From assembly GCA_041650315.1 (NCBI GenBank), contig JBAZLJ010000001.1, forward strand, positions 280,259 through 344,258: DNA of 64,000 bases. The letters run 5' to 3'. A program made the translations under genes and the position numbers. The notes under the pieces are model-generated. The model was not told the origin of the DNA, did not search any database, and saw nothing but the letters and a program-made list of their open reading frames with translations. Below, piece by piece: positions 2,750 to 51,026 of the stretch. The stretch comes from Candidatus Woesearchaeota archaeon (GTDB taxonomy: Archaea; Nanobdellota; Nanobdellia; Woesearchaeales; JAGVYF01). How positions within the stretch are numbered: the stretch's first letter is position 1; each line of letters opens with the position of its first letter.

Positions 2750-3100
2750 ATGCCAAAAACAATAATGGTTGTTGATGATGAGCCGGATATCCGCGCTACA
2801 GTAAAAACAGTTCTTGAGAAGAATGGTTTCAAAGTCATTACCGCAGTAAATGGCGATGATTGCCTTGATAAGCTGAAGAAAGAGAAACCTGATCTGATAC
2901 TTCTTGACATAATGATGCCGGGGACTCCTGTCAAAGAGATTGTGCCTAAGATTAAGGGCAAAATCGCATATCTGACTGTTGTCAGAGTGACTGAAGCGGA
3001 GAAAGAGCAACTTTTGAAAAATAAGAATATAGTAGATTTCATACAGAAGCCTTTCGATATCAAAGACTTAGTGAAAAGAGTGACTAAATTAACTTCATGA
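2750..3100 (+). CDS. Stand-alone response regulator receiver (CheY-like REC) domain protein
   Basis: MVVDDEPDIR...LILLDIMMPG...K. Conserved acidic pocket (DD), phospho-acceptor Asp in LLDIMMP, and conserved Lys. 116 aa. Confidence 0.85.
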   Translation: MPKTIMVVDDEPDIRATVKTVLEKNGFKVITAVNGDDCLDKLKKEKPDLILLDIMMPGTPVKEIVPKIKGKIAYLTVVRVTEAEKEQLLKNKNIVDFIQKPFDIKDLVKRVTKLTS

Positions 3101-3639
3101 GATTGGTTGAAATGGATATTACTAAAGAATTGAAGGACAATCAGGTTGTGCTTTTGCTAGTTGAGGGATTGGAGTACAATGATCTTTCTTTGAAAGTGGC
3201 TAAAGAACTTTTCGGCAAGAAAGTGTGCTATGTGACTCTGAACAAGACGTGCCCTTCGATTATCGAGAACTTTTCGAAAGCGAATATAAAAACTAAGGGT
3301 GTGACGTTTGTTGATGCAATTTCCAAAACTATTACCGGCAGGCCTAAGGCAGTTGACTCTTGCATGTATCTCAGTTCGCCAGGAGCATTGACTGAGTTGT
3401 CAATAGCAATCACTGAATTCATAAGGGAAGGATATGATTATATCATCTTTGATTCATTGACTAATTTGCTGATATACCAGGGCAAAGGGCCTGTCGCTAA
3501 ATTCGTCGCTAATCTGATCACTAAGATAAAAGCCAGCAAGACTCGCGCTGTGTTTTATGCACTTAAAGTCGATCAGCATCAAGAGCTTATACAGGAAGCG
3601 TCCATGTTTGTAGATAAAGTTGTGGATGCGAGCAAATAA
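3097..3639 (+). CDS. KaiC/RecA-fold (COG0467-like) protein with degenerate Walker A
   Basis: Start overlaps the REC gene stop (ATGA). The layout VVLLLVEGLEYNDL...DYIIFDSLTNLL resembles the KaiC/RadA-like core, but the GxxxxGK[ST] P-loop is replaced by EGLEYNDL. Family call is by pattern only. Confidence 0.4.
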   Translation: MRLVEMDITKELKDNQVVLLLVEGLEYNDLSLKVAKELFGKKVCYVTLNKTCPSIIENFSKANIKTKGVTFVDAISKTITGRPKAVDSCMYLSSPGALTELSIAITEFIREGYDYIIFDSLTNLLIYQGKGPVAKFVANLITKIKASKTRAVFYALKVDQHQELIQEASMFVDKVVDASK

Positions 3640-3691
3640 TCTCAATCATATCAGTATCGGGAAAGATTTTGTTTCCCATAATCAGTTTAAC

Positions 3692-5866
3692 ATGAAAGAG
3701 CAACCGAAAAAAGAGGGAGTTGATTCAAGTAGGTCTTTTTCTAGATTTTATTTCAGCAAATTGAATATTAAATTATTCATGATAGCTTTCATGTTTTTAA
3801 TTCTCGCAATATCTTCTTTTGGGATAGTCATCTATTATGTGGTCATTGATTCATTGAGTTTTCAGATACAATCTGAATTAGAATTGGCGGCCACTTTGAC
3901 TTCCAATCATGTAATAACCTATTTCGATGAAAAGACTGAGCTTATCAAGCTGATAACCAGTAGAACGCAGTTGAGGCGGGATTTGAATAATTATATTTCT
4001 GCTCCGAATCAGGATTTATACAATGAGATTGTGCTAAAACTTAAGGATTCTAAAGGGTCGATTGAGGAAATACAAAATCTTTGCTTCATCAATATGGGAG
4101 GCATTGTAGATGCCTGCAGTGATAATAGTATCACCGGAACTGATTTTTCTCAAGAAAGATTTTTTTCACAAGGCAAAATTTCAGAAGGCAGTTATTTCTT
4201 TAAAAATTCAGGCAATTGGAATATTGTGATTTCCGGTCCGATATATGAAAATAATCAGATATTGGGCGTCGTAATAGTAGTGTATGGTTTGCAAGAGCTT
4301 GGTGATATCATCACAGAAAGAGCTGGATTAGGGGAGACTGGTGAAGTATTGATTGCATTCAATGATAATAATGGGCAGACCATATATCCTTTGCCAAGGC
4401 GTTTTGAGAATGATGCGGTATCTATGAATTTTGTGGGATTACCGATGCAAGCTGCTCTAAATAAAGAATCTACTTTTTTTAAGAAAACCTATGATTACAG
4501 GGATGTGCAGGTGATTGCGGCTACTAAATATATTGACAGCGTTAAATTAGGATTGGTATCAAAAATAGATTATGCTGAAGCCATTCTGCCGGTACGTGAC
4601 AGACTTATTATTCTTTTCGTCAGAGTTAGCTTAATCTTAGTTCTGGTCTTGACATTGCTTTTCTTTTTAATATCTCTACGTATAATTAAACCTATACATG
4701 AGTTGATATCCGCTGCTGAAAGGTTGAAGAACAATGATTTCAAAGTTCATTTGAATATCAAGACTGATGATGAGCTTGAGCAGTTAGCGGGGACTTTTAA
4801 TACTACTGCAGAGATACTTGATAATCTTGAGAATGAAAGAAAACAGATTGATAAGGCGAAGACTGAGTTCTTGTCAATCACGTCGCATGAATTGCGAAGT
4901 CCGATGACGCCGATGAGGGCGCAATTGCAAATGGTGCTCGGTGATTATTTCGGGAAACTTAATGCTGAACAGAGGAATGCGCTTGAGATTGTGCTGAACA
5001 ATACTGAACGTCTTGACAAGATAATCGTCGATTTCCTTGAGATCTCGCGTATTGAGGCTGCTCGTTTGAAATTCAATTTCGTGAAAGCTGATTTAACTAA
5101 AATGATAAATCTTGTTGTTGAAGAAGTTAAATCATTTATGCCTGAGAAGAAACTTCGGATTGAGTTGGATGTCGGCAGATTGCCCATTATTGAATGCGAT
5201 CCTGACCGTGTATCACAAGTACTGCGTAATCTTTTGACAAATTCTATTAAATTCTCGCATCAGAACGGGCGTGTTTTAGTGTCTGTGAAGCACACAGATG
5301 GAATGATTCAGTTTAGCGTGAAAGATGAGGGTGTAGGCATATCCGAGAAAGATCAGAAGCATCTTTTCGAGCCGTTCTTCCAAGTCGAGAATATGTATCA
5401 GCATAAATCCGGCGGTACTGGTCTAGGGCTTGCTATCTGTAAGGGCATTGTAGAGAGTCAGAACGGGAGGATTTGGCTTGTTTCTCAAGAAGGCAAAGGA
5501 ACTGTTTTTAATTTCACTGTGCCGTTGAAACCAGTGCATGAGATTAAGGCCATAAAGATTTTGTTCTCGAACGGACAGAAGACGGATGAGCTCGTCAAAA
5601 ATTTATTTATTGAATATATCGGGCCATTAGGTGAACGTGAATTCGAGGAATTGCAGAAAAGCAAAGGGATTACTTATGAATCTGTGCATCAATATATATC
5701 GGATTTAGCCAAGAAAGGAATACTTATGAAAGAGAATTCCGAAGAATTTAAAAGCAAGATTGCTATGGTATTTGGCAGAGAAGAAAAAGAGGTTAAGAAA
5801 TTGAAAAAGAAAGAGAGATTGACTTTGCCTCAACAGGAGGTAGCTGAGTTTTTCAGCAAAAACTAA
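3692..5866 (+). CDS. Sensor histidine kinase: N-terminal TM, extracytoplasmic Cache-like sensor, second TM, HAMP, HisKA (H-box ITSHELRSP), HATPase_c (GGTGLGLAICKGIVE), plus an extra C-terminal ~115 aa module
   Basis: H-box SHELRSPMTPM. N-box LRNLLTNSIKFS. G-boxes DEGVGI and GGTGLGL. Two TM segments flank a ~270 aa periplasmic-type domain. The ORF is open from 3620 (MWMRANN...) but ATG 3692 (MKEQPKKEG) avoids overlap with the upstream gene. Confidence 0.85.
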   Translation: MKEQPKKEGVDSSRSFSRFYFSKLNIKLFMIAFMFLILAISSFGIVIYYVVIDSLSFQIQSELELAATLTSNHVITYFDEKTELIKLITSRTQLRRDLNNYISAPNQDLYNEIVLKLKDSKGSIEEIQNLCFINMGGIVDACSDNSITGTDFSQERFFSQGKISEGSYFFKNSGNWNIVISGPIYENNQILGVVIVVYGLQELGDIITERAGLGETGEVLIAFNDNNGQTIYPLPRRFENDAVSMNFVGLPMQAALNKESTFFKKTYDYRDVQVIAATKYIDSVKLGLVSKIDYAEAILPVRDRLIILFVRVSLILVLVLTLLFFLISLRIIKPIHELISAAERLKNNDFKVHLNIKTDDELEQLAGTFNTTAEILDNLENERKQIDKAKTEFLSITSHELRSPMTPMRAQLQMVLGDYFGKLNAEQRNALEIVLNNTERLDKIIVDFLEISRIEAARLKFNFVKADLTKMINLVVEEVKSFMPEKKLRIELDVGRLPIIECDPDRVSQVLRNLLTNSIKFSHQNGRVLVSVKHTDGMIQFSVKDEGVGISEKDQKHLFEPFFQVENMYQHKSGGTGLGLAICKGIVESQNGRIWLVSQEGKGTVFNFTVPLKPVHEIKAIKILFSNGQKTDELVKNLFIEYIGPLGEREFEELQKSKGITYESVHQYISDLAKKGILMKENSEEFKSKIAMVFGREEKEVKKLKKKERLTLPQQEVAEFFSKN

Positions 5867-6618
5867 TGGCAGAATTATCATTATATTTAGCTAATCTAAC
5901 AGGTATATTCTCTATAATCACAGCTATACTAGGGATACGCCTTATTCTGGCTATTCTTTCTAAGAAGAAGAGTCCTATCCAAAGAACAATTCATATCATA
6001 TTTGGATTATTAGTGATAAGTTTTATATCATGGGCTTCAGCTGAGACGATATGGGCAATTTTATCTATTATGGGAATAGATCCGGCATTCGGAATTGCCG
6101 AATACTTTTATTTATTCGGTTATTTATGCTCCGCAATAGCTTTAATCTATTTCGCTAAAATAAATCTTTCCCATTCAGCTTTTGAAGAGATTTTCTCAGT
6201 TTCTGTAATCGGTGGCTTGTTCATATTATTCGCGTTATTCTCAGTAAACTTTGTAGTCTCGGGTTATGTGGAGAAATTGCCGGCATTAGAGATGTTTCTA
6301 AGCTATTTTTATCCAATAGGTAGCGCTATTTTATTTGCGCTTTCTTCAACTGTGTATATTTTCTTTCGTAAGATAAAAATTATTGAGATACCATTGATTC
6401 TCATAGCTGCGGGATACATATTCAATTTTGTAGGGGATCTTGGATATACATATTATTCATTGAGAGAAATTTATGGCACAATAGGCATAATTTCAGATAT
6501 TTGTTTTATGATTCAATATCTTTTAGTAGCTAAGGCATTCTGCTTATTAATATCATCATTATCAAATGGAAATTGCGGATTCAATATAAAATCAAAGACT
6601 AAAAATGAAACAGAATGA
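5866..6618 (+). CDS. Hypothetical 7-TM integral membrane protein (possible sensor-associated membrane module)
   Basis: 250 aa and almost entirely hydrophobic helices. Start overlaps the kinase stop; its own stop overlaps the next gene's start. Confidence 0.4.
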   Translation: MAELSLYLANLTGIFSIITAILGIRLILAILSKKKSPIQRTIHIIFGLLVISFISWASAETIWAILSIMGIDPAFGIAEYFYLFGYLCSAIALIYFAKINLSHSAFEEIFSVSVIGGLFILFALFSVNFVVSGYVEKLPALEMFLSYFYPIGSAILFALSSTVYIFFRKIKIIEIPLILIAAGYIFNFVGDLGYTYYSLREIYGTIGIISDICFMIQYLLVAKAFCLLISSLSNGNCGFNIKSKTKNETE

Positions 6619-8899
6619 ACAAATAATCGGCGGATTGATTGGGATTGTTTTTGTCGCAGCTATCTTAGTTATGATTGGATGGATATTCGGAGTAGATACT
6701 CTAAAAAGCATTGTTCCCGGTTTCGTGACAATGAAGTTCTCCACAGCAGTCGCGTTCTTAATAGTGGGATTAATATTGCTGGGAATGTCAAATTTATTAG
6801 ATATATCTTATTTGTATAAAGGCGTATTTTTCTTTTCAACACTATTATTGATATTCATGGGATATATGCTGGTAACTTCTCTATTGGGTTTAACTAGCGG
6901 CATCGAAAATCTAGTTGTGGAAGAAGCAGCAGGTGCATTGAAAACCAGCAAGCCCGGCATGCCTTCGGCAGCGACCATGCTTAATTTCGTTCTTATCGCA
7001 GTCGCTGGACTGATTTCATTATCTTCATATAAACAGAAGGGATTCAGAATAATTTCTGTGATTGTCGGATTATTGGGTGTAAGCAGTGTGCTAGGATATA
7101 TCTCAAACAGCCCTTCATTGTATTTCTATATCGAAGGGATTAGCTCTGCGATGGCGCTTCATACGGCTTTCTTATTCGTGTTCATAGGGATTGCCATATA
7201 TCTTCTTTCAGGACTAGTTTCTGAGAAAAATAATATACAGATAGGCACTGAGATTTTCTTAGGGTTCTTTTCAATTGTAGTATTGATGGTATTCATGATA
7301 GGATTGAGCTCTCAGATCAATACTCAGAGGCTTGAGAATACTCAGATGATAAGGGATGTCGAAGCTCCTTTGGAACTGATGGTTGAACAAGTCAGGGGGT
7401 ATGATGCCATACTCACTAGTGCTGCACACGAATCTTTATTGCATGCACAAAAAGGCGAATTCAATTATGCTAGGCAGCATAAAGTCAAATATGATGAAAC
7501 CAGCGCTAAATTGGATACCCTTCTTAAGTTCAATGCCCCAAAGCTGCTTGCAAAAAGTTTTAGACCGCAGATTGATAAGGATAAAGTAATCGAGATATTG
7601 AATGAACTGGATATTGTGAATATTGAATTGGTTGATTTAGAGATGCGTGCATTTGAAGCTATCGAGAATAAGGACACCGAATCGGCATATTCATTGATTG
7701 TTTCTGAACAATACTCTGAATCTAAGGAAAGGCTTGTTAATTTATACAATGAATGGGTAGCAATTGAAATAAGAACGACTTCTGAGCTTAGAGCTAAGAT
7801 TATAGATGAATCCAATCAGTTAGATTCGCTTAATTTTTATTTTTCAATAATTGTAGTGATATTCGCATTGATATTCTCGATATTCATGACATTGTCTTTA
7901 ACCAGGCCTATCAAAAGATTGGAAAATGAAGTGATTGAGATATCTAAAGGAAAACTGGATCTGCAACTTAGTAAAAGCAATCTTGAAGAAGTGCAAAATT
8001 TATCTGATTCATTGAGCAGGATATTGGCTACCATGAAGCTTGCTGTACTTAGGACCGGACTAACTAAAGCTGAACTTGGTTTTGAGGAAATTGTGAAGGC
8101 GAAGGAAGAAATTGAAAAAAAATATAAGATATTGTTTGACGTTTCTCAGGATGCGATTATGACTATTGCGCCGCCTAAATGGAATTTCACTTCTGGAAAT
8201 CCTGCGACTTTGAAAATGTTTAACATCAATAGTGAGAAGCAGTTGGCATTATTGAATCCAGCAGAATTATCTCCTGAAAGGCAACCTGATGGCCAGCTTT
8301 CATCAGCAAAAGCTAAAAAGATGATTGATATTGCCGTGAAAAAAGGTTCTAATTTCTTTGAATGGACGCATAAGAGATACAAAGGCGAGAATTTCGCAGC
8401 CAATGTTTTGTTGAGCAAAGTCAATGAGGACGGGGAAACCTATCTCCAAGCTACTGTGAGAGATTTATCTAATACAATAATCGGAGAACAGAAATTTAAA
8501 ATACTCATAGAGAGTATGGATGATGCAGTTTATTTGCACGGATTTGAACCTGACGGAAAGCCTACTAATTTCATCGATGTCAATTCTGCGGCATGCAAGA
8601 GGATGGGTTATACTCGCGCAGAATTCCTTAAGATGAGTCCTATGAAATTGGATTCGCCTAAAGGTGCAAAGAACATACCTAAAATAATGAAAATTTTGTT
8701 ATCCACTGGCAAAGCATTGTTTGAAGGAGAGCATATCACTAAGAAAGGTAAGACAATACCTGTCGAGATAAATAGCAGTATCTTGAATATCGCAGGGAAG
8801 AAGTATGTGCTTTCTATCGCGAGAGACATCTCTGGGCGTAAATCCGGCGGATATATCAAGCTGAATACTAACGGAAGAACTGAAAAGTATATGATGTGA
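6605..8899 (+). CDS. Membrane-bound PAS sensor protein: ~7 TM N-terminal domain, HAMP-like linker, two PAS domains, no kinase/MCP/GGDEF output
   Basis: TM region extends to ~aa 235. A second TM lies at ~aa 400, followed by RPIKRLENEVIEISKGKLDLQ (HAMP-like). PAS-like blocks are KYKILFDVSQDAIMTIAP... and KFKILIESMDDAVYLHGFEPDG...KRMGYTRAEFLKM. No H-box or ATPase motifs. Confidence 0.6.
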   Translation: MKQNEQIIGGLIGIVFVAAILVMIGWIFGVDTLKSIVPGFVTMKFSTAVAFLIVGLILLGMSNLLDISYLYKGVFFFSTLLLIFMGYMLVTSLLGLTSGIENLVVEEAAGALKTSKPGMPSAATMLNFVLIAVAGLISLSSYKQKGFRIISVIVGLLGVSSVLGYISNSPSLYFYIEGISSAMALHTAFLFVFIGIAIYLLSGLVSEKNNIQIGTEIFLGFFSIVVLMVFMIGLSSQINTQRLENTQMIRDVEAPLELMVEQVRGYDAILTSAAHESLLHAQKGEFNYARQHKVKYDETSAKLDTLLKFNAPKLLAKSFRPQIDKDKVIEILNELDIVNIELVDLEMRAFEAIENKDTESAYSLIVSEQYSESKERLVNLYNEWVAIEIRTTSELRAKIIDESNQLDSLNFYFSIIVVIFALIFSIFMTLSLTRPIKRLENEVIEISKGKLDLQLSKSNLEEVQNLSDSLSRILATMKLAVLRTGLTKAELGFEEIVKAKEEIEKKYKILFDVSQDAIMTIAPPKWNFTSGNPATLKMFNINSEKQLALLNPAELSPERQPDGQLSSAKAKKMIDIAVKKGSNFFEWTHKRYKGENFAANVLLSKVNEDGETYLQATVRDLSNTIIGEQKFKILIESMDDAVYLHGFEPDGKPTNFIDVNSAACKRMGYTRAEFLKMSPMKLDSPKGAKNIPKIMKILLSTGKALFEGEHITKKGKTIPVEINSSILNIAGKKYVLSIARDISGRKSGGYIKLNTNGRTEKYMM

Positions 8900-8903
8900 T
8901 AAT

Positions 8904-9305
8904 ATGAAGAAGATAATATGGACTACTAAACTCGCAATCGGAATTGATGAAATAGATAATCAGCATAAGCAATTCATCAAGATATTGAACACTTGCTGTA
9001 CTCCCAAAAACATAGATTCACAGAAATTGAAAGAAATCTTTTCCGAATTGATTGAATTCGTAAGGGTTCATTTTTCTACAGAAGAAAAATATTTCGAGAA
9101 ATGGGAATATCCCTATGCTCAAGAGCATATGATTGAGCATGAAAAACTGATAATAAATACGTTGAAATACCAGATGAAGTTTGAGAAGATTGGGGGTAAA
9201 GTTGTCCCTGAACTTTTGAAATTCTTGGAAGATTGGTTTGAGAATCATTTGAAGAAGCATGATTTCAAATACAGGGATTATTTTATAGAGAAAGGTTTCA
9301 TTTAG
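8904..9305 (+). CDS. Hemerythrin-like (HHE cation-binding domain) protein
   Basis: W.....GI..ID.QH...F, then H(x3)E ... HF..EE..F ... H..EH ... H...D. This is the hemerythrin His/Glu/Asp ligand pattern. 133 aa, 4 bp after the PAS gene. Confidence 0.8.
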   Translation: MKKIIWTTKLAIGIDEIDNQHKQFIKILNTCCTPKNIDSQKLKEIFSELIEFVRVHFSTEEKYFEKWEYPYAQEHMIEHEKLIINTLKYQMKFEKIGGKVVPELLKFLEDWFENHLKKHDFKYRDYFIEKGFI

Positions 9306-9338
9306 TTCTGATGGGCTCTGTAGAAAATCTCGTTATCA

Positions 9339-9397
9339 CACAAGAACTGCTATGCAGTTCTGTGCACAGAAGCACTTTGTGCTTCTTGTGCTCGCCA
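9339..9397. repeat. Partial copy of the MITE internal module: two adjacent palindromic hairpins (GAACTGC-WW-GCAGTTC, then GAAGCAC-TTT-GTGCTTC)
   Basis: Matches 193-248 of the element at 153-394. The first palindrome is identical. The second has complementary changes on both arms (GGAGTACT/AGTACTCC becomes GAAGCAC/GTGCTTC). No TIRs here. Confidence 0.55.
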
Positions 9398-9605
9398 CCA
9401 ACAGCAATTTGACCTTGCTAGGTCAATTCTCAAATAATGTTTGAGAAAATGTTGCTATTTCAAAAGTGAGGGTGCTATATCGTCATAGACTTCTATAACG
9501 CACTTGATGTTAGAATTGAGAACATTTTGAGAAGGTTGGTGGACTTTTCTACAAAGCCATTCTGATACAAAGTCTTATAAATAATCTATATTCTCTAGTA
9601 GCTAT

Positions 9606-10829
9606 ATGGCAACTAAATCAAAATCTCATAAATGTGAATTGTTAGCGCCAGCTGGAAATCGCGAAATGCTTGTTGCGGCTATTGATGCAGGATGCGATTC
9701 AGTATATTTCGGCGTGAAGTCGTTCAATATGAGAGTGAATGCCGGCAATTTCTCGGTTTCTGAACTTCCTGATGTTGTTAAATATTGTCATGCGCATAAA
9801 GTAAAAGCTTACTTGACTCTGAATTCTATCATATACGATAATGAGCTTGCTGAGCTTGATACTGTTTTGAAAGCTGCGAAATCTGCTAAGATTGATGCAA
9901 TCATATGTTGGGACATGTCTGTGCTCAGATTGGCGCAGAAATACAAATTGGATGTTCATCTTTCTACGCAGGCTTCTGTCAGTAATTTTGAAGCTGTTGA
10001 ATATTATGCGAAGTTGGGGGTTAAACGTATTATCTTGGCTAGGGAGCTATCGCTTTCACAGATTAAGTCTATAACTGACCAGATTATTAAACGTAAACTT
10101 AACGTTTCAATCGAGACTTTTGTTCACGGCGCGATGTGCGTTGCGGTTTCTGGACGTTGCTTTACATCGCAGTTTTTATTCAAGCGTTCTGCTAATCGCG
10201 GGGACTGCCTTCAACCATGCAGGCGCGCGTATAAAGTCACGGATATGGAGACTGGCGGAGAAGTAAAACTTGACAATAATTATGTCATGTCTGCTAAGGA
10301 TCTATGTGCGCTGCCATTCATTGATAAATTGAAGGATGCGGGGATATCTGCGTTTAAGATCGAGGGCAGATGCAGAAGTCCTGAATATGTGAAGGTTGTT
10401 ATTTCTGCGTATAGGAAAGCGATTGATAATGCGCTGAGTGAAGTTCAGAAGAAGGAATTGATTGCTAAGCTGAAGAGTGTATATAATCGGAAGTTTTCAT
10501 CTGGTTTCTATCTTGGTCTTCCTACAAATGATGATTTCACTGATATTTATGGAAGCGCTGCTACTTACGTTAAGGAGTATATCGGCTATGTATGCAATTT
10601 CTACAGCAAAATAAATGTGGCAGAAGTTAATATAGAATCTAACGGACTTAAGGTTGGCGATCATCTGATGATAATCGGGCCTACAACCGGTGTAAAAGAG
10701 CAGAAGCTGTCATCCATTGAGATAAACCATCACAAGATAAAATCTGCGAAAAAAGGCAGGCATATCGCTGTTAAACTGAATTTCTTAGCGAGAATCAATG
10801 ACAAAGTATTTGTGATAAGAAAAGCGTAG
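9606..10829 (+). CDS. Peptidase U32 family protein (collagenase-like; the family includes the RNA hydroxylation enzymes RlhA/TrhP)
   Basis: N-terminal ELLAPAGN...AI.AGADAVY signature and a Cys-rich central region (CVAVSGRCF...GDCLQPCRR). 407 aa. Confidence 0.75.
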   Translation: MATKSKSHKCELLAPAGNREMLVAAIDAGCDSVYFGVKSFNMRVNAGNFSVSELPDVVKYCHAHKVKAYLTLNSIIYDNELAELDTVLKAAKSAKIDAIICWDMSVLRLAQKYKLDVHLSTQASVSNFEAVEYYAKLGVKRIILARELSLSQIKSITDQIIKRKLNVSIETFVHGAMCVAVSGRCFTSQFLFKRSANRGDCLQPCRRAYKVTDMETGGEVKLDNNYVMSAKDLCALPFIDKLKDAGISAFKIEGRCRSPEYVKVVISAYRKAIDNALSEVQKKELIAKLKSVYNRKFSSGFYLGLPTNDDFTDIYGSAATYVKEYIGYVCNFYSKINVAEVNIESNGLKVGDHLMIIGPTTGVKEQKLSSIEINHHKIKSAKKGRHIAVKLNFLARINDKVFVIRKA

Positions 10830-10831
10830 AA

Positions 10832-11584
10832 CTAATAATAGGATTTAGCTTTATTCTTGACAAGCTTAACTGCTTTCTTCTTAATTGGTTTGATTTTTTT
10901 TGTTGATACTTTTGCTTTTTCTGCAACTTTCGCAATCTTAGCGACTTTCTTAGCTTTGACTTTCGCGATTATTTTTTTAACTATATTCTTCTTCACGCTT
11001 TTTTTGCTTGCGTTGACTTTCATCTTGCCTGCTTCTTTATGGATGTGAAGCTTTTTCTTTTCAGGCATCAATGGCGCAACTTCGATCTTTAAGAAGTCTT
11101 CAGCTTCTTTGATTTTGTGCTGGATCTTGATTATGTCTTGAGAATTGTCCTGCTGTTGGATAAGCGAACCGCATTCAGGGCATTTGAATTCAAAATTCAT
11201 AGCTTGCTCGAAATCCAGCCTGATACAGCCTTCAGGGCATGCGAAGAATATTGCAGAATTCTCACGTTCAAGCCTTTCTCTGAGTTTGGTGAGTCTTTCT
11301 TTCTGCAGTTTGATTGTAAGATATTTTATTTGATTAGGATTGAATGTCCAGTAATAGATGTACCAACCTTTCACTCTGTCTTTCTTTCTTATGAAATGGA
11401 CCAGATCTTGGTCAAGAAGGCGGTAGAGCATATTCCTTGTAATATTGATCTGCTCTTTCAGAATCTCAGCTATCTTAAACTCGGAAATGTTCTTCTTGTC
11501 CTTTATCGCTAGGATCAACGGAACAGTATCTTCACCGGCTACTGTGCTTATTACTTCTTCAATTAATTTGTTTGTTATCTTCAT
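10832..11584 (-). CDS. tfe: Transcription factor E alpha (TFE, TFIIE-alpha homolog) with a ~75-aa Lys/Ala-rich C-terminal extension
   Basis: Winged helix plus GWYIYYW motif, then FFACPEGCIRLDFEQAMNFEFKCPECGS zinc ribbon. The tail KKAVKLVKNKAK / AKVKAKKVAKIAKVAEKAKV is not part of canonical TFE. Confidence 0.85.
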   Translation of the reverse strand: MKITNKLIEEVISTVAGEDTVPLILAIKDKKNISEFKIAEILKEQINITRNMLYRLLDQDLVHFIRKKDRVKGWYIYYWTFNPNQIKYLTIKLQKERLTKLRERLERENSAIFFACPEGCIRLDFEQAMNFEFKCPECGSLIQQQDNSQDIIKIQHKIKEAEDFLKIEVAPLMPEKKKLHIHKEAGKMKVNASKKSVKKNIVKKIIAKVKAKKVAKIAKVAEKAKVSTKKIKPIKKKAVKLVKNKAKSYY

Positions 11585-50827: not shown

Positions 50828-50885
50828 AGAGATTTACTTGGTTTTTATAAAGCTAACTTCGGATTTTTCATTAAATTCTCTATCG

Positions 50886-51026
50886 GGCGCGTCCAGAATT
50901 CTCGTTTCACTCGATCAATGCCATCTCACATCTACTTCTTTTCATCTATCTTCAGAATGGATTCTGCTAATTATCTGTACATGTAGTATGTTCAGTATAG
51001 GCATTGGTACCATTCTGGACATACTC
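50886..51026. mobile_element. MITE-like element copy B (shorter and degenerate): TIRs GGGCGCGTCCAGAATT / CATTCTGGACATACTC
   Basis: The interior aligns with 241-340 of copy A (CACATCTACTTCTTT...GATTCTGCTAATTATCTGTA...GTATGTTCAGTATAGGCATTGGT). It lacks the double-hairpin module. Confidence 0.55.

Follow-up and report, generated by a model that had tools for sequence, protein, structure and literature searches.

What does a receiver domain act on when it has no output domain of its own, and when the gene overlapping its stop codon encodes a KaiC-like protein that has lost its Walker A motif? This question is raised by a six-gene cluster in a 64,000-nucleotide stretch of a Candidatus Woesearchaeota genome (GenBank assembly GCA_041650315.1, contig JBAZLJ010000001.1, positions 280,259 to 344,258 of the forward strand; hereafter the window). 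Six tightly packed open reading frames (ORFs) on the + strand span 2750-9305, and our ORF listing recovered each of them where an initial annotation, made from the letters alone, had placed it. In order, they encode a stand-alone receiver (REC), a single-domain protein that we call iKaiC (inactivated KaiC), a membrane sensor histidine kinase (HK), a seven-transmembrane (7TM) protein, a large kinase-less sensor of 7TM, HAMP and two PAS modules, and a hemerythrin. These domain assignments were borne out by Pfam and NCBIfam profiles, by hydropathy and by AlphaFold2 and Foldseek; in the NCBI annotation, the KaiC-like and 7TM proteins are hypothetical. We find that the pairing of REC and iKaiC recurs widely among DPANN archaea, and we lean, by a little, towards reading the pair as a split response regulator that links histidine kinase signaling to KaiC-type hubs, with the remaining proteins serving as accessory sensors.

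A Receiver Gene Overlaps the Gene of a KaiC-Fold Protein

The first gene (2750-3100, +) encodes a receiver of 116 aa in which Response_reg is the sole Pfam domain (75.5 bits). Its phospho-acceptor set is complete (D9, D10, D53, T76 and K100-P101), and by these residues the protein should be phosphorylatable. The initial annotation had claimed that neither this receiver nor the large PAS protein carries an output domain, and Pfam and NCBIfam searches agreed on both.

The second gene (3097-3639, +) begins within the first, the junction being a true ATGA overlap at 3097-3100, and encodes a 180-aa protein with a single-domain KaiC/RecA fold. Pfam places this protein only at the margin: DUF7504 passes narrowly (27.8 bits against a cut-off of 27), DUF835 (20.6 against 33.1) and KaiC PF06745 (16.9 against 26.6) fall below their cut-offs, DUF7090 matches weakly, and MEDS does not match. 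The AlphaFold2 model, built with 41 homologues, has a predicted local distance difference test score (pLDDT) of 92.4, and its top Foldseek matches in the PDB are FlaH/ArlH (4yds, E=1e-6), PH0284 (2dr3) and KaiC, each with a probability of 1.0 and with TM-scores up to 0.72. At the Walker A position the window protein reads GLEYNDLS, and GxxGxGK[ST] occurs in 0/111 family members; the loss of this motif had been correctly noted at the outset. A Walker-B-like hhhD[SA]h is kept in 105/111 members (IIFDS in the window protein). The family alignment has a mean column identity of 65% and 19 invariant columns, with invariant motifs YVTLNKT, FVDAIS, SSPGALTE and FDSLTNL and many invariant polar residues at strand ends.

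Profile-profile alignment (hhalign) with the full-length KaiC proteins that terminate many related cassettes sets LNKT (N49-K50) opposite the catalytic fEEs, so that N49-K50 would replace the catalytic Glu-Glu of KaiC, in an alignment that is weak (E=0.04). As this match is marginal, homology rests on the fold search. A KaiC fold without Walker A and, by the weak alignment, with LNKT at the FEES position identifies the 180-aa protein as an inactivated KaiC; on the strength of the structural model, it is a KaiC-fold protein without ATPase motifs.

REC and iKaiC Form a Recurrent Pair

With iKaiC as query, a homology search gave 348 proteins. Lengths among the best 120 are about 172-188 aa, and identities to the query are mostly 51-61%; wherever a source is named, it belongs to the Woese-, Pace- or Nanoarchaeota. 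A profile was also run against 1.84 billion representatives; it matched 2,417 clusters (50% identity) with E<=1e-3, of which 1,516 reached E<=1e-10. A scan of species-representative genomes yielded 109 stretches encoding an iKaiC relative. These numbers do not fit the earlier claim that such a composition is rare in small archaeal genomes. For comparison, the four complete DPANN genomes available to Galperin et al. (2018; PMC5847659) held one kinase and one regulator in total. From the 109 stretches we took 80 loci with 117 iKaiC genes, called ORFs in all of them and classed the products with profiles built from the window proteins; the gap and adjacency statistics below refer to this set. Most of the loci are from DPANN archaea, of the eight candidate phyla Woese-, Pace-, Nano-, Iain-, Micr-, Aenigm-, Undin- and Altiarchaeota, and a few are from Thermoplasmatota.

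A REC gene on the same strand lies directly upstream of 89/117 iKaiC genes, with gaps mostly of -14 to +3 nt. These proximal RECs average 59% identity between loci but share only 37% with the remaining RECs of their loci, and for 74/82 of them the nearest neighbor belongs to the same class. By sequence, then, the iKaiC-proximal receivers are a subfamily of their own, and all 82 retain the DD, D, S/T and K-P positions. Stand-alone archaeal RECs, by comparison, mostly lack a conserved neighborhood (PMC5847659). In Thermoplasmatota the REC and iKaiC genes are also found by themselves, without a nearby kinase, and one protein, P0178, is a natural REC-iKaiC fusion. Adjacency, a dedicated receiver subfamily, lone pairs, a fusion and translational coupling together make a physical REC-iKaiC partnership the most economical reading of these sequences. 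A second fusion, the metagenomic protein P0256 (396 aa), joins an N-terminal CheC-like match to iKaiC; the CheC match is weak, at 20.7 bits against a cut-off of 22.

Several variants of the pair were observed. One locus (L005, 4978-8528, on a 600-kb contig) carries three REC-iKaiC pairs plus two extra tandem RECs ahead of a single kinase, so that the module is strikingly amplified at this one place. In two Thermoplasmatota loci (L056, 2815-10555; L067, 9652-17476) a lone pair adjoins the same two genes, one for a surface protein of 1,900-1,980 aa and one for a 300-aa coiled-coil membrane protein, in differing relative orientation; these two proteins could be a target or partner of REC-iKaiC. 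A sister iKaiC subfamily of about 290 aa has no upstream REC and bears a C-terminal extension with two transmembrane (TM) helices and a basic tail, RKSFRNKIxxWFKK (L012 7490-8377, - strand; L083 9857-10870; L084 5348-6229; L085 9998-10909; also P0163, P0165, P0186 and others). It is presumably a membrane-anchored pseudo-ATPase.

The Pair Heads a Conserved Cassette

The pair is usually followed by further signaling genes. Among the 60 loci with enough sequence, 46 have a kinase gene within 1.5 kb downstream. In the 40 loci with at least 8 kb of downstream sequence, we found the kinase in 33, a kinase-less PAS/HAMP protein in 29, a full-length KaiC in 22 and a hemerythrin in nine. The usual order is REC(-REC)-iKaiC-HK-(TM protein)-(Cache/PAS sensor)-(hemerythrin)-KaiC, and Walker A is kept in 38/40 of the KaiC proteins at the cassette ends, a subtype marked by GGAGSGKT...FEESE. 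Because the arrangement recurs in dozens of species, it lies far beyond chance. The suggestion that the six proteins act together is thus supported by a gene order that recurs across many DPANN lineages, and on this comparative evidence the REC-iKaiC pairing is a widespread, conserved DPANN module. In the rest of the 64-kb window, no P-loop KaiC, second kinase or second REC was found.

The Cassette Kinase and Its C-Terminal Tail

The kinase gene (3692-5866, +) encodes, in order, a TM segment, dCache, a second TM segment, HAMP, HisKA, HATPase_c and a C-terminal helical tail. HisKA (57.6 bits) and HATPase_c (109.8 bits) score far above their Pfam cut-offs, as does the receiver; dCache_1 stays below its own (39.4 against 45). 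The H-box SHELRSP and the motifs NLLTNSIKFS, DEGVGI and GGTGLGL are all legible, and by domains and residues the kinase and REC qualify as a two-component system. The most likely start is ATG 3692, 52 nt past the iKaiC stop (TAA 3637-3639) and kept in a related locus, L091, that is 92% identical. Products on record are 724 and 746 aa long, and alternative starts lie at 3626 (ATG) and 3620 (TTG); by our own correspondence, the 746-aa NCBI product would start at ATG 3626 and overlap iKaiC by 14 nt. The initial annotation had passed over this junction, as it had the helical tail and the transposon-like nature of the spacer after the hemerythrin gene.

The tail (5552-5866, +; a helical domain of about 75-80 aa) takes up roughly the final 100 residues of the kinase, with the consensus IKLLFS...LGPLGE.EFE.L...Y...L.KKGI...F. 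It is conserved in 46 cassette kinases, sometimes duplicated, and lacking from the other kinases of the same loci. It also forms the C-terminus of one double-domain KaiC (L069 1484-3235, - strand). All 120 best homologues of the HATPase-plus-tail segment carry it. Among the tailed kinases are forms of ~470 aa in Thermoplasmatota-type genomes, in a REC-HK-PAS neighborhood that lacks iKaiC. In three such loci from Thermoplasmatales-type and other archaeal genomes (L088, L089 and L090, around 6600-9600 in each), the ~470-aa HAMP-HisKA-HATPase-tail kinase stands in a triad of REC, HK and either a PAS protein or a small protein. The REC-HK-PAS triads imply that kinase and REC can work without iKaiC, and the comparison suggests that iKaiC is an addition to an older REC-HK core.

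Neither Pfam nor a PDB sequence search gave a significant match for the tail. Its AlphaFold2 model is all-helical with a core pLDDT of about 85, and a Foldseek search with this model returned nothing significant. Among compact structures it is matched best by pyrin and death-effector domains, with low Z, and a profile search matched an 85-aa chain of caspase-1, which we take to be the CARD, at E=0.52. The tail may be death-fold-like. A 'Death domain-like' archaeal family has been named among REC-associated domains (Galperin et al., 2018; PMC5847659), a connection that we treat as a lead only. Weak matches to MCM_C and HTH_45 had raised the candidate of a winged helix; the all-helical model speaks against it, and no significant hit in its favor came from the PDB sequence search.

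Accessory Sensors and Their Exchange

The three genes after the kinase complete the cluster. The first (5866-6618, +) encodes a 250-aa protein with about seven hydrophobic TM segments by hydropathy and no Pfam or NCBIfam match. Its unnamed family has seven members, in six loci and the window, each encoded directly 3' of the cassette kinase, with conserved motifs AExxW, YFYPIxS and GDxxYTYYSWNDIYG. A rhodopsin was considered and rejected: the lysine in TM7 occurs only in the window protein and is I, V or I in relatives, no Pfam match was obtained, and a lysine that is not conserved means that the protein is not a rhodopsin.

The second (6605-8899, +) encodes the kinase-less sensor of 764 aa. 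By hydropathy it has seven TM segments, an extracytoplasmic helical loop of ~170 aa and an eighth TM segment ahead of HAMP. HAMP itself scores weakly, HK models pick up the TM-HAMP region with E values of 1e-3 to 1e-5, and two PAS domains follow (TIGR00229 in two stretches; PAS_9/PAS_8). The protein terminates 14 residues past the second PAS, and Pfam and NCBIfam found no MCPsignal, GGDEF/EAL or HisKA/HATPase output domain in it. Elsewhere, its 7TM module is a separate gene of ~215 aa before Cache/PAS proteins.

The terminal gene (8904-9305, +) encodes a bacteriohemerythrin of 133 aa (NF033749, 106 bits against a cut-off of 84; Hemerythrin PF01814, 50.4 against 25.3) with all seven di-iron ligands, H21, H56, E60, H75, H79, H115 and D120 (H-HxxxE-HxxxH-HxxxxD). 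Where a hemerythrin is present, it usually begins a few nucleotides past the Cache/PAS sensor. It directly follows this sensor in six loci (L005, L011, L026, L073, L076 and L078) and lies further downstream elsewhere.

The junctions show how closely these genes are packed. The initial annotation had the ATGA at 3097, the 14-nt overlap at 6605 (ATG 6605, TGA 6616-6618) and the 4-nt gap before the hemerythrin gene (TGA 8897-8899, ATG 8904) right; its ATGA at 5866 is actually TAATG, in which TAA 5864-5866 and ATG 5866-5868 overlap by 1 nt.

Comparison with close relatives shows that the accessory genes are exchangeable. In L001, where iKaiC is 84% identical and the same MgtE, U32 peptidase and TFE genes flank the cassette, neither a 7TM protein nor a hemerythrin is encoded, and an NMT1-type periplasmic binding protein (10575-11552) lies between iKaiC and the kinase. 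In L091 (92% nucleotide identity; reverse complement 7068-9804) only the 7TM gene is missing, and the PAS protein follows the kinase with the same 14-nt overlap. The window 7TM gene closes with KNETE and the L091 kinase with ENETE, a resemblance that hints at an insertion here.

Flanking Regions and a MITE-Like Element

The window has a GC content of 35-44%, and the genes neighboring the cassette are housekeeping and transport genes. The AT-rich intergenic stretch upstream (2595-2749, +) is the presumed promoter, with TATA-like runs TTTATATA around 2665 and ATATATTATAATTATA around 2720, and a Shine-Dalgarno-like GGTG directly precedes the REC ATG. Divergent from the cassette, upstream of it, lie two adjoining MgtE-type membrane genes (1319-2594, - strand; 243 and 180 aa). 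The same gene pair stands upstream in L001, from which its Pfam annotation was taken, and it looks like a split divalent-cation transporter.

Past the hemerythrin gene, a 300-nt spacer (9306-9605) holds a 247-bp element (9313-9559) resembling a miniature inverted-repeat transposable element (MITE). It ends in the inverted repeats GGGCTCTGTAGAAAA and TTTTCTACAAAGCCA, and on either side stands the 7-bp direct repeat TTCTGAT (9306-9312 and 9560-9566), so that the repeat immediately follows the hemerythrin stop and the element begins 8 nt past it. Two further copies with related ends occur in the window, at 153-393 (241 bp, GTAAAAA flanks) and 50885-51024 (140 bp, TTCTCTA flanks), and related sites were found in L091 (about 6097-6232) and L092 (about 2685-2846); at the same site in L001 the element is absent. 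The window copies are mosaics of shared internal hairpin modules, with two compensatory changes in one stem. The spacer folds very strongly (z = -5.3 and -6.1) and has no Rfam match. A noncoding RNA was considered here and rejected, since the terminal inverted repeats and the duplicated 7-bp target mark the spacer as a MITE-like insertion.

How Might the Cassette Work?

Our preferred model is that of a split response regulator coupled to the KaiC system, a reading that we rate slightly above even. In it, the membrane kinase would sense an extracytoplasmic ligand and phosphorylate the dedicated REC at the head of the operon. The output of this REC would be the iKaiC encoded by the overlapping next gene, the pair being the two-gene equivalent of REC-iKaiC fusions that have already been cataloged. 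Phosphorylated REC may alter the oligomeric state or the partners of iKaiC, which would then dock onto a RecA/KaiC-type ring or another partner. In the related cassettes that end in an intact P-loop KaiC, which are over half, His-Asp signaling could in this way be coupled to an archaeal KaiC hub. The 7TM, 7TM-HAMP-PAS-PAS and hemerythrin proteins would be exchangeable accessory sensors (membrane, redox, O2 or iron), probably tuning the kinase through protein contacts. We infer kinase-to-REC phosphotransfer from operon linkage, that is, from the downstream kinase in 46/60 loci. REC-iKaiC binding, an action of iKaiC on the KaiC ATPase, the roles of the accessory sensors and co-transcription of the six genes are likewise predictions of the model.

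Four observations weigh against the split regulator. Its main weakness is that a P-loop KaiC, the expected hub, is absent from the 64-kb window and from beside the cassette of the close relative L001. The sequence likeness of iKaiC to the cassette KaiCs is very weak, as the hhalign score above shows. REC-HK-PAS triads with the same tailed kinase family occur without iKaiC, and P0178 is the only clear REC-iKaiC fusion in the iKaiC family of the window.

The alternative that survives best, which we nevertheless consider unlikely, is that iKaiC acts upstream of the phosphorylated receiver and not downstream of it. By analogy with accessory proteins of the CheC/CheZ or KaiB/SasA type, it would be a modulator (a scaffold, a phosphate-sink partner or a phosphatase adaptor) that sets the level of REC~P, with the true output elsewhere. 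CheC-family domains bind CheY-P and dephosphorylate it, so the CheC-like-iKaiC fusion would fit such a role, as would the two to five RECs that precede a single iKaiC in many loci, an arrangement reminiscent of phosphate-sink designs. The occurrence of the kinase-REC-PAS triad without iKaiC points the same way. The CheC match of that one family member is, however, under the Pfam cut-off, and the kinase-free REC-iKaiC pair of Thermoplasmatota appears self-contained. Moreover, iKaiC-type domains are fused to REC at the position usually taken by an output domain, both in P0178 and in cataloged regulators (PMC5847659).

A second alternative, improbable in our estimate, is a role for iKaiC as a sensor of a nucleotide or small molecule that reports energy or metabolite state to REC. 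The candidate remodeled pocket would comprise the invariant N49-K50-T51, D73, S93-S94-P95, E100 and D119-S120, by analogy with ArlH, which binds ATP without real turnover. Very high conservation is seen at the C-terminal strand ends of the beta-sheet, where the RecA fold has its nucleotide site; an invariant Lys-Thr stands at the KaiC Glu-Glu position, by the weak alignment; and ATP-bound FlaH/ArlH is the best structural match. Against this, Walker A is found in none of the 111 members, and a protein-protein interface would explain the conservation equally well.

Finally, the notion that this is an ordinary two-component system beside unrelated iKaiC, 7TM, PAS and hemerythrin genes, packed together by genome compactness, can draw on the gene density and common short gene overlaps of DPANN genomes and on the missing 7TM and hemerythrin genes of close relatives, but the same order in dozens of species of several phyla, the REC-iKaiC adjacency in 89/117 cases, the recurrence of hemerythrin right after the Cache/PAS sensor and the confinement of the 7TM family to the position after the cassette kinase leave it a negligible chance, and comparative genomics effectively excludes a coincidental neighborhood.

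The split regulator can also be put in a bolder form, which we offer tentatively and with more doubt than confidence. As a dedicated split regulator, the pseudo-ATPase would plug His-Asp phosphorylation into the KaiC ring, through mixed rings or capping; the kinase tail would be a death-fold-like adapter recruiting the same hub; and REC plus iKaiC would possibly be a principal route of signaling in many DPANN archaea.

Relation to Known Systems

The closest parallels to the cassette come from comparative genomics. Inactivated KaiC ('iKaiC') is listed among the REC-associated output domains by Galperin et al. (2018; PMC5847659, Table 2), with iKaiC-REC fusions in Methanosarcinaceae, REC-DUF835 in Methanomicrobia and Thermoplasmata, and MEDS-REC in Nitrososphaera. 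The same study credits Makarova et al. (2017) with proposing a role as archaeal signaling hubs for KaiC-like ATPases and for the inactivated forms related to them. At the level of the idea, then, the initial annotation was wrong to call the partner logic undescribed, and the cassette is an extension and not a surprise. The searchable literature did not yield the split two-gene form of REC and iKaiC, the DPANN-wide cassette or the frequent terminal intact KaiC ATPase. Overall, the observation behind the initial annotation is real, and its interpretation is partly supported.

The window pair resembles the cataloged REC-iKaiC regulators (PMC5847659) in coupling a receiver to a KaiC-superfamily domain without ATPase motifs, in the absence of a DNA-binding output, and in a predicted action through protein-protein contacts in a KaiC-centered network. 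It differs in that its parts are separate, translationally coupled genes, their coupling being operonic; in that its iKaiC is a distinct family, marginal for DUF7504 and failing DUF835; in its hosts, which are DPANN and not Methanomicrobia, Thermoplasmata or Nitrososphaera; and in being embedded in a larger conserved cassette. ArlH/FlaH (4yds), the best structural match, shares the single-domain KaiC fold and a similar size, and it acts by binding its partner ATPase ArlI and not by turnover, a likeness that may extend to iKaiC. Unlike the window iKaiC, which lacks Walker A, ArlH has Walker A/B, binds ATP and is encoded in the arl operon; no archaellum or pilus genes were found in the cassette or in the neighbors that we checked.

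The nearest experimental precedent is a 2026 study of Haloferax, in which one quorum-sensing screen recovered mutations in the KaiC-like CirA and in a two-component system with a stand-alone REC (PMC13464002). CirA and QarABC of Haloferax volcanii, which affect shape and motility, thus place a KaiC-type protein, a kinase and a stand-alone receiver in one pathway (PMC13464002). CirA, however, is annotated as KaiC-type and not described as inactivated, its gene (HVO_1212) lies apart from qar (HVO_1356-1358), and the connection between REC and KaiC is a genetic one (PMC13464002).

Other comparisons are looser. The cyanobacterial KaiABC clock uses a double-domain KaiC with KaiB and KaiA, whereas iKaiC is a single domain of 180 aa; Pfam matched KaiA or KaiB in 0/6 cassette genes, and the window has no KaiC ATPase. 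Hemerythrin domains fused to a methyl-accepting chemotaxis protein or a diguanylate cyclase, as in DcrH-Hr of Desulfovibrio and Bhr-DGC of Vibrio cholerae, sense O2, redox or iron; in the window, by contrast, the hemerythrin is a separate protein of 133 aa, whose gene lies 4 nt behind that of a kinase-less PAS sensor. Non-catalytic membrane proteins encoded beside a kinase, and thought to tune it, are known from LiaF-LiaS, YycHI-WalK and SaePQ-SaeS. The 7TM and 7TM-HAMP-PAS proteins have no sequence relationship to LiaF, YycHI or SaePQ and are unnamed archaeal families. A role in anti-phage defense was considered and rejected: PADLOC gave only generic REC and HATPase likeness, and the iKaiC, 7TM, PAS and hemerythrin proteins were unmatched.

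Implications for DPANN Signaling

The cassette gives one subfamily of orphan receivers a co-inherited partner, a KaiC fold that appears ATPase-dead, often together with an intact KaiC ATPase. It also reduces the KaiC-hub hypothesis to tests on short soluble proteins, namely binding between REC~P and iKaiC and between iKaiC and KaiC. If the bolder form of the split regulator is correct, it would be the first concrete, testable wiring for the proposed hybrid of bacterial two-component and archaeal KaiC signaling, in genomes of ~1 Mb. That reduced, host-dependent DPANN archaea keep such an elaborate multi-sensor input (Cache, 7TM, PAS and hemerythrin) bears on how they may perceive O2, redox state and their hosts.

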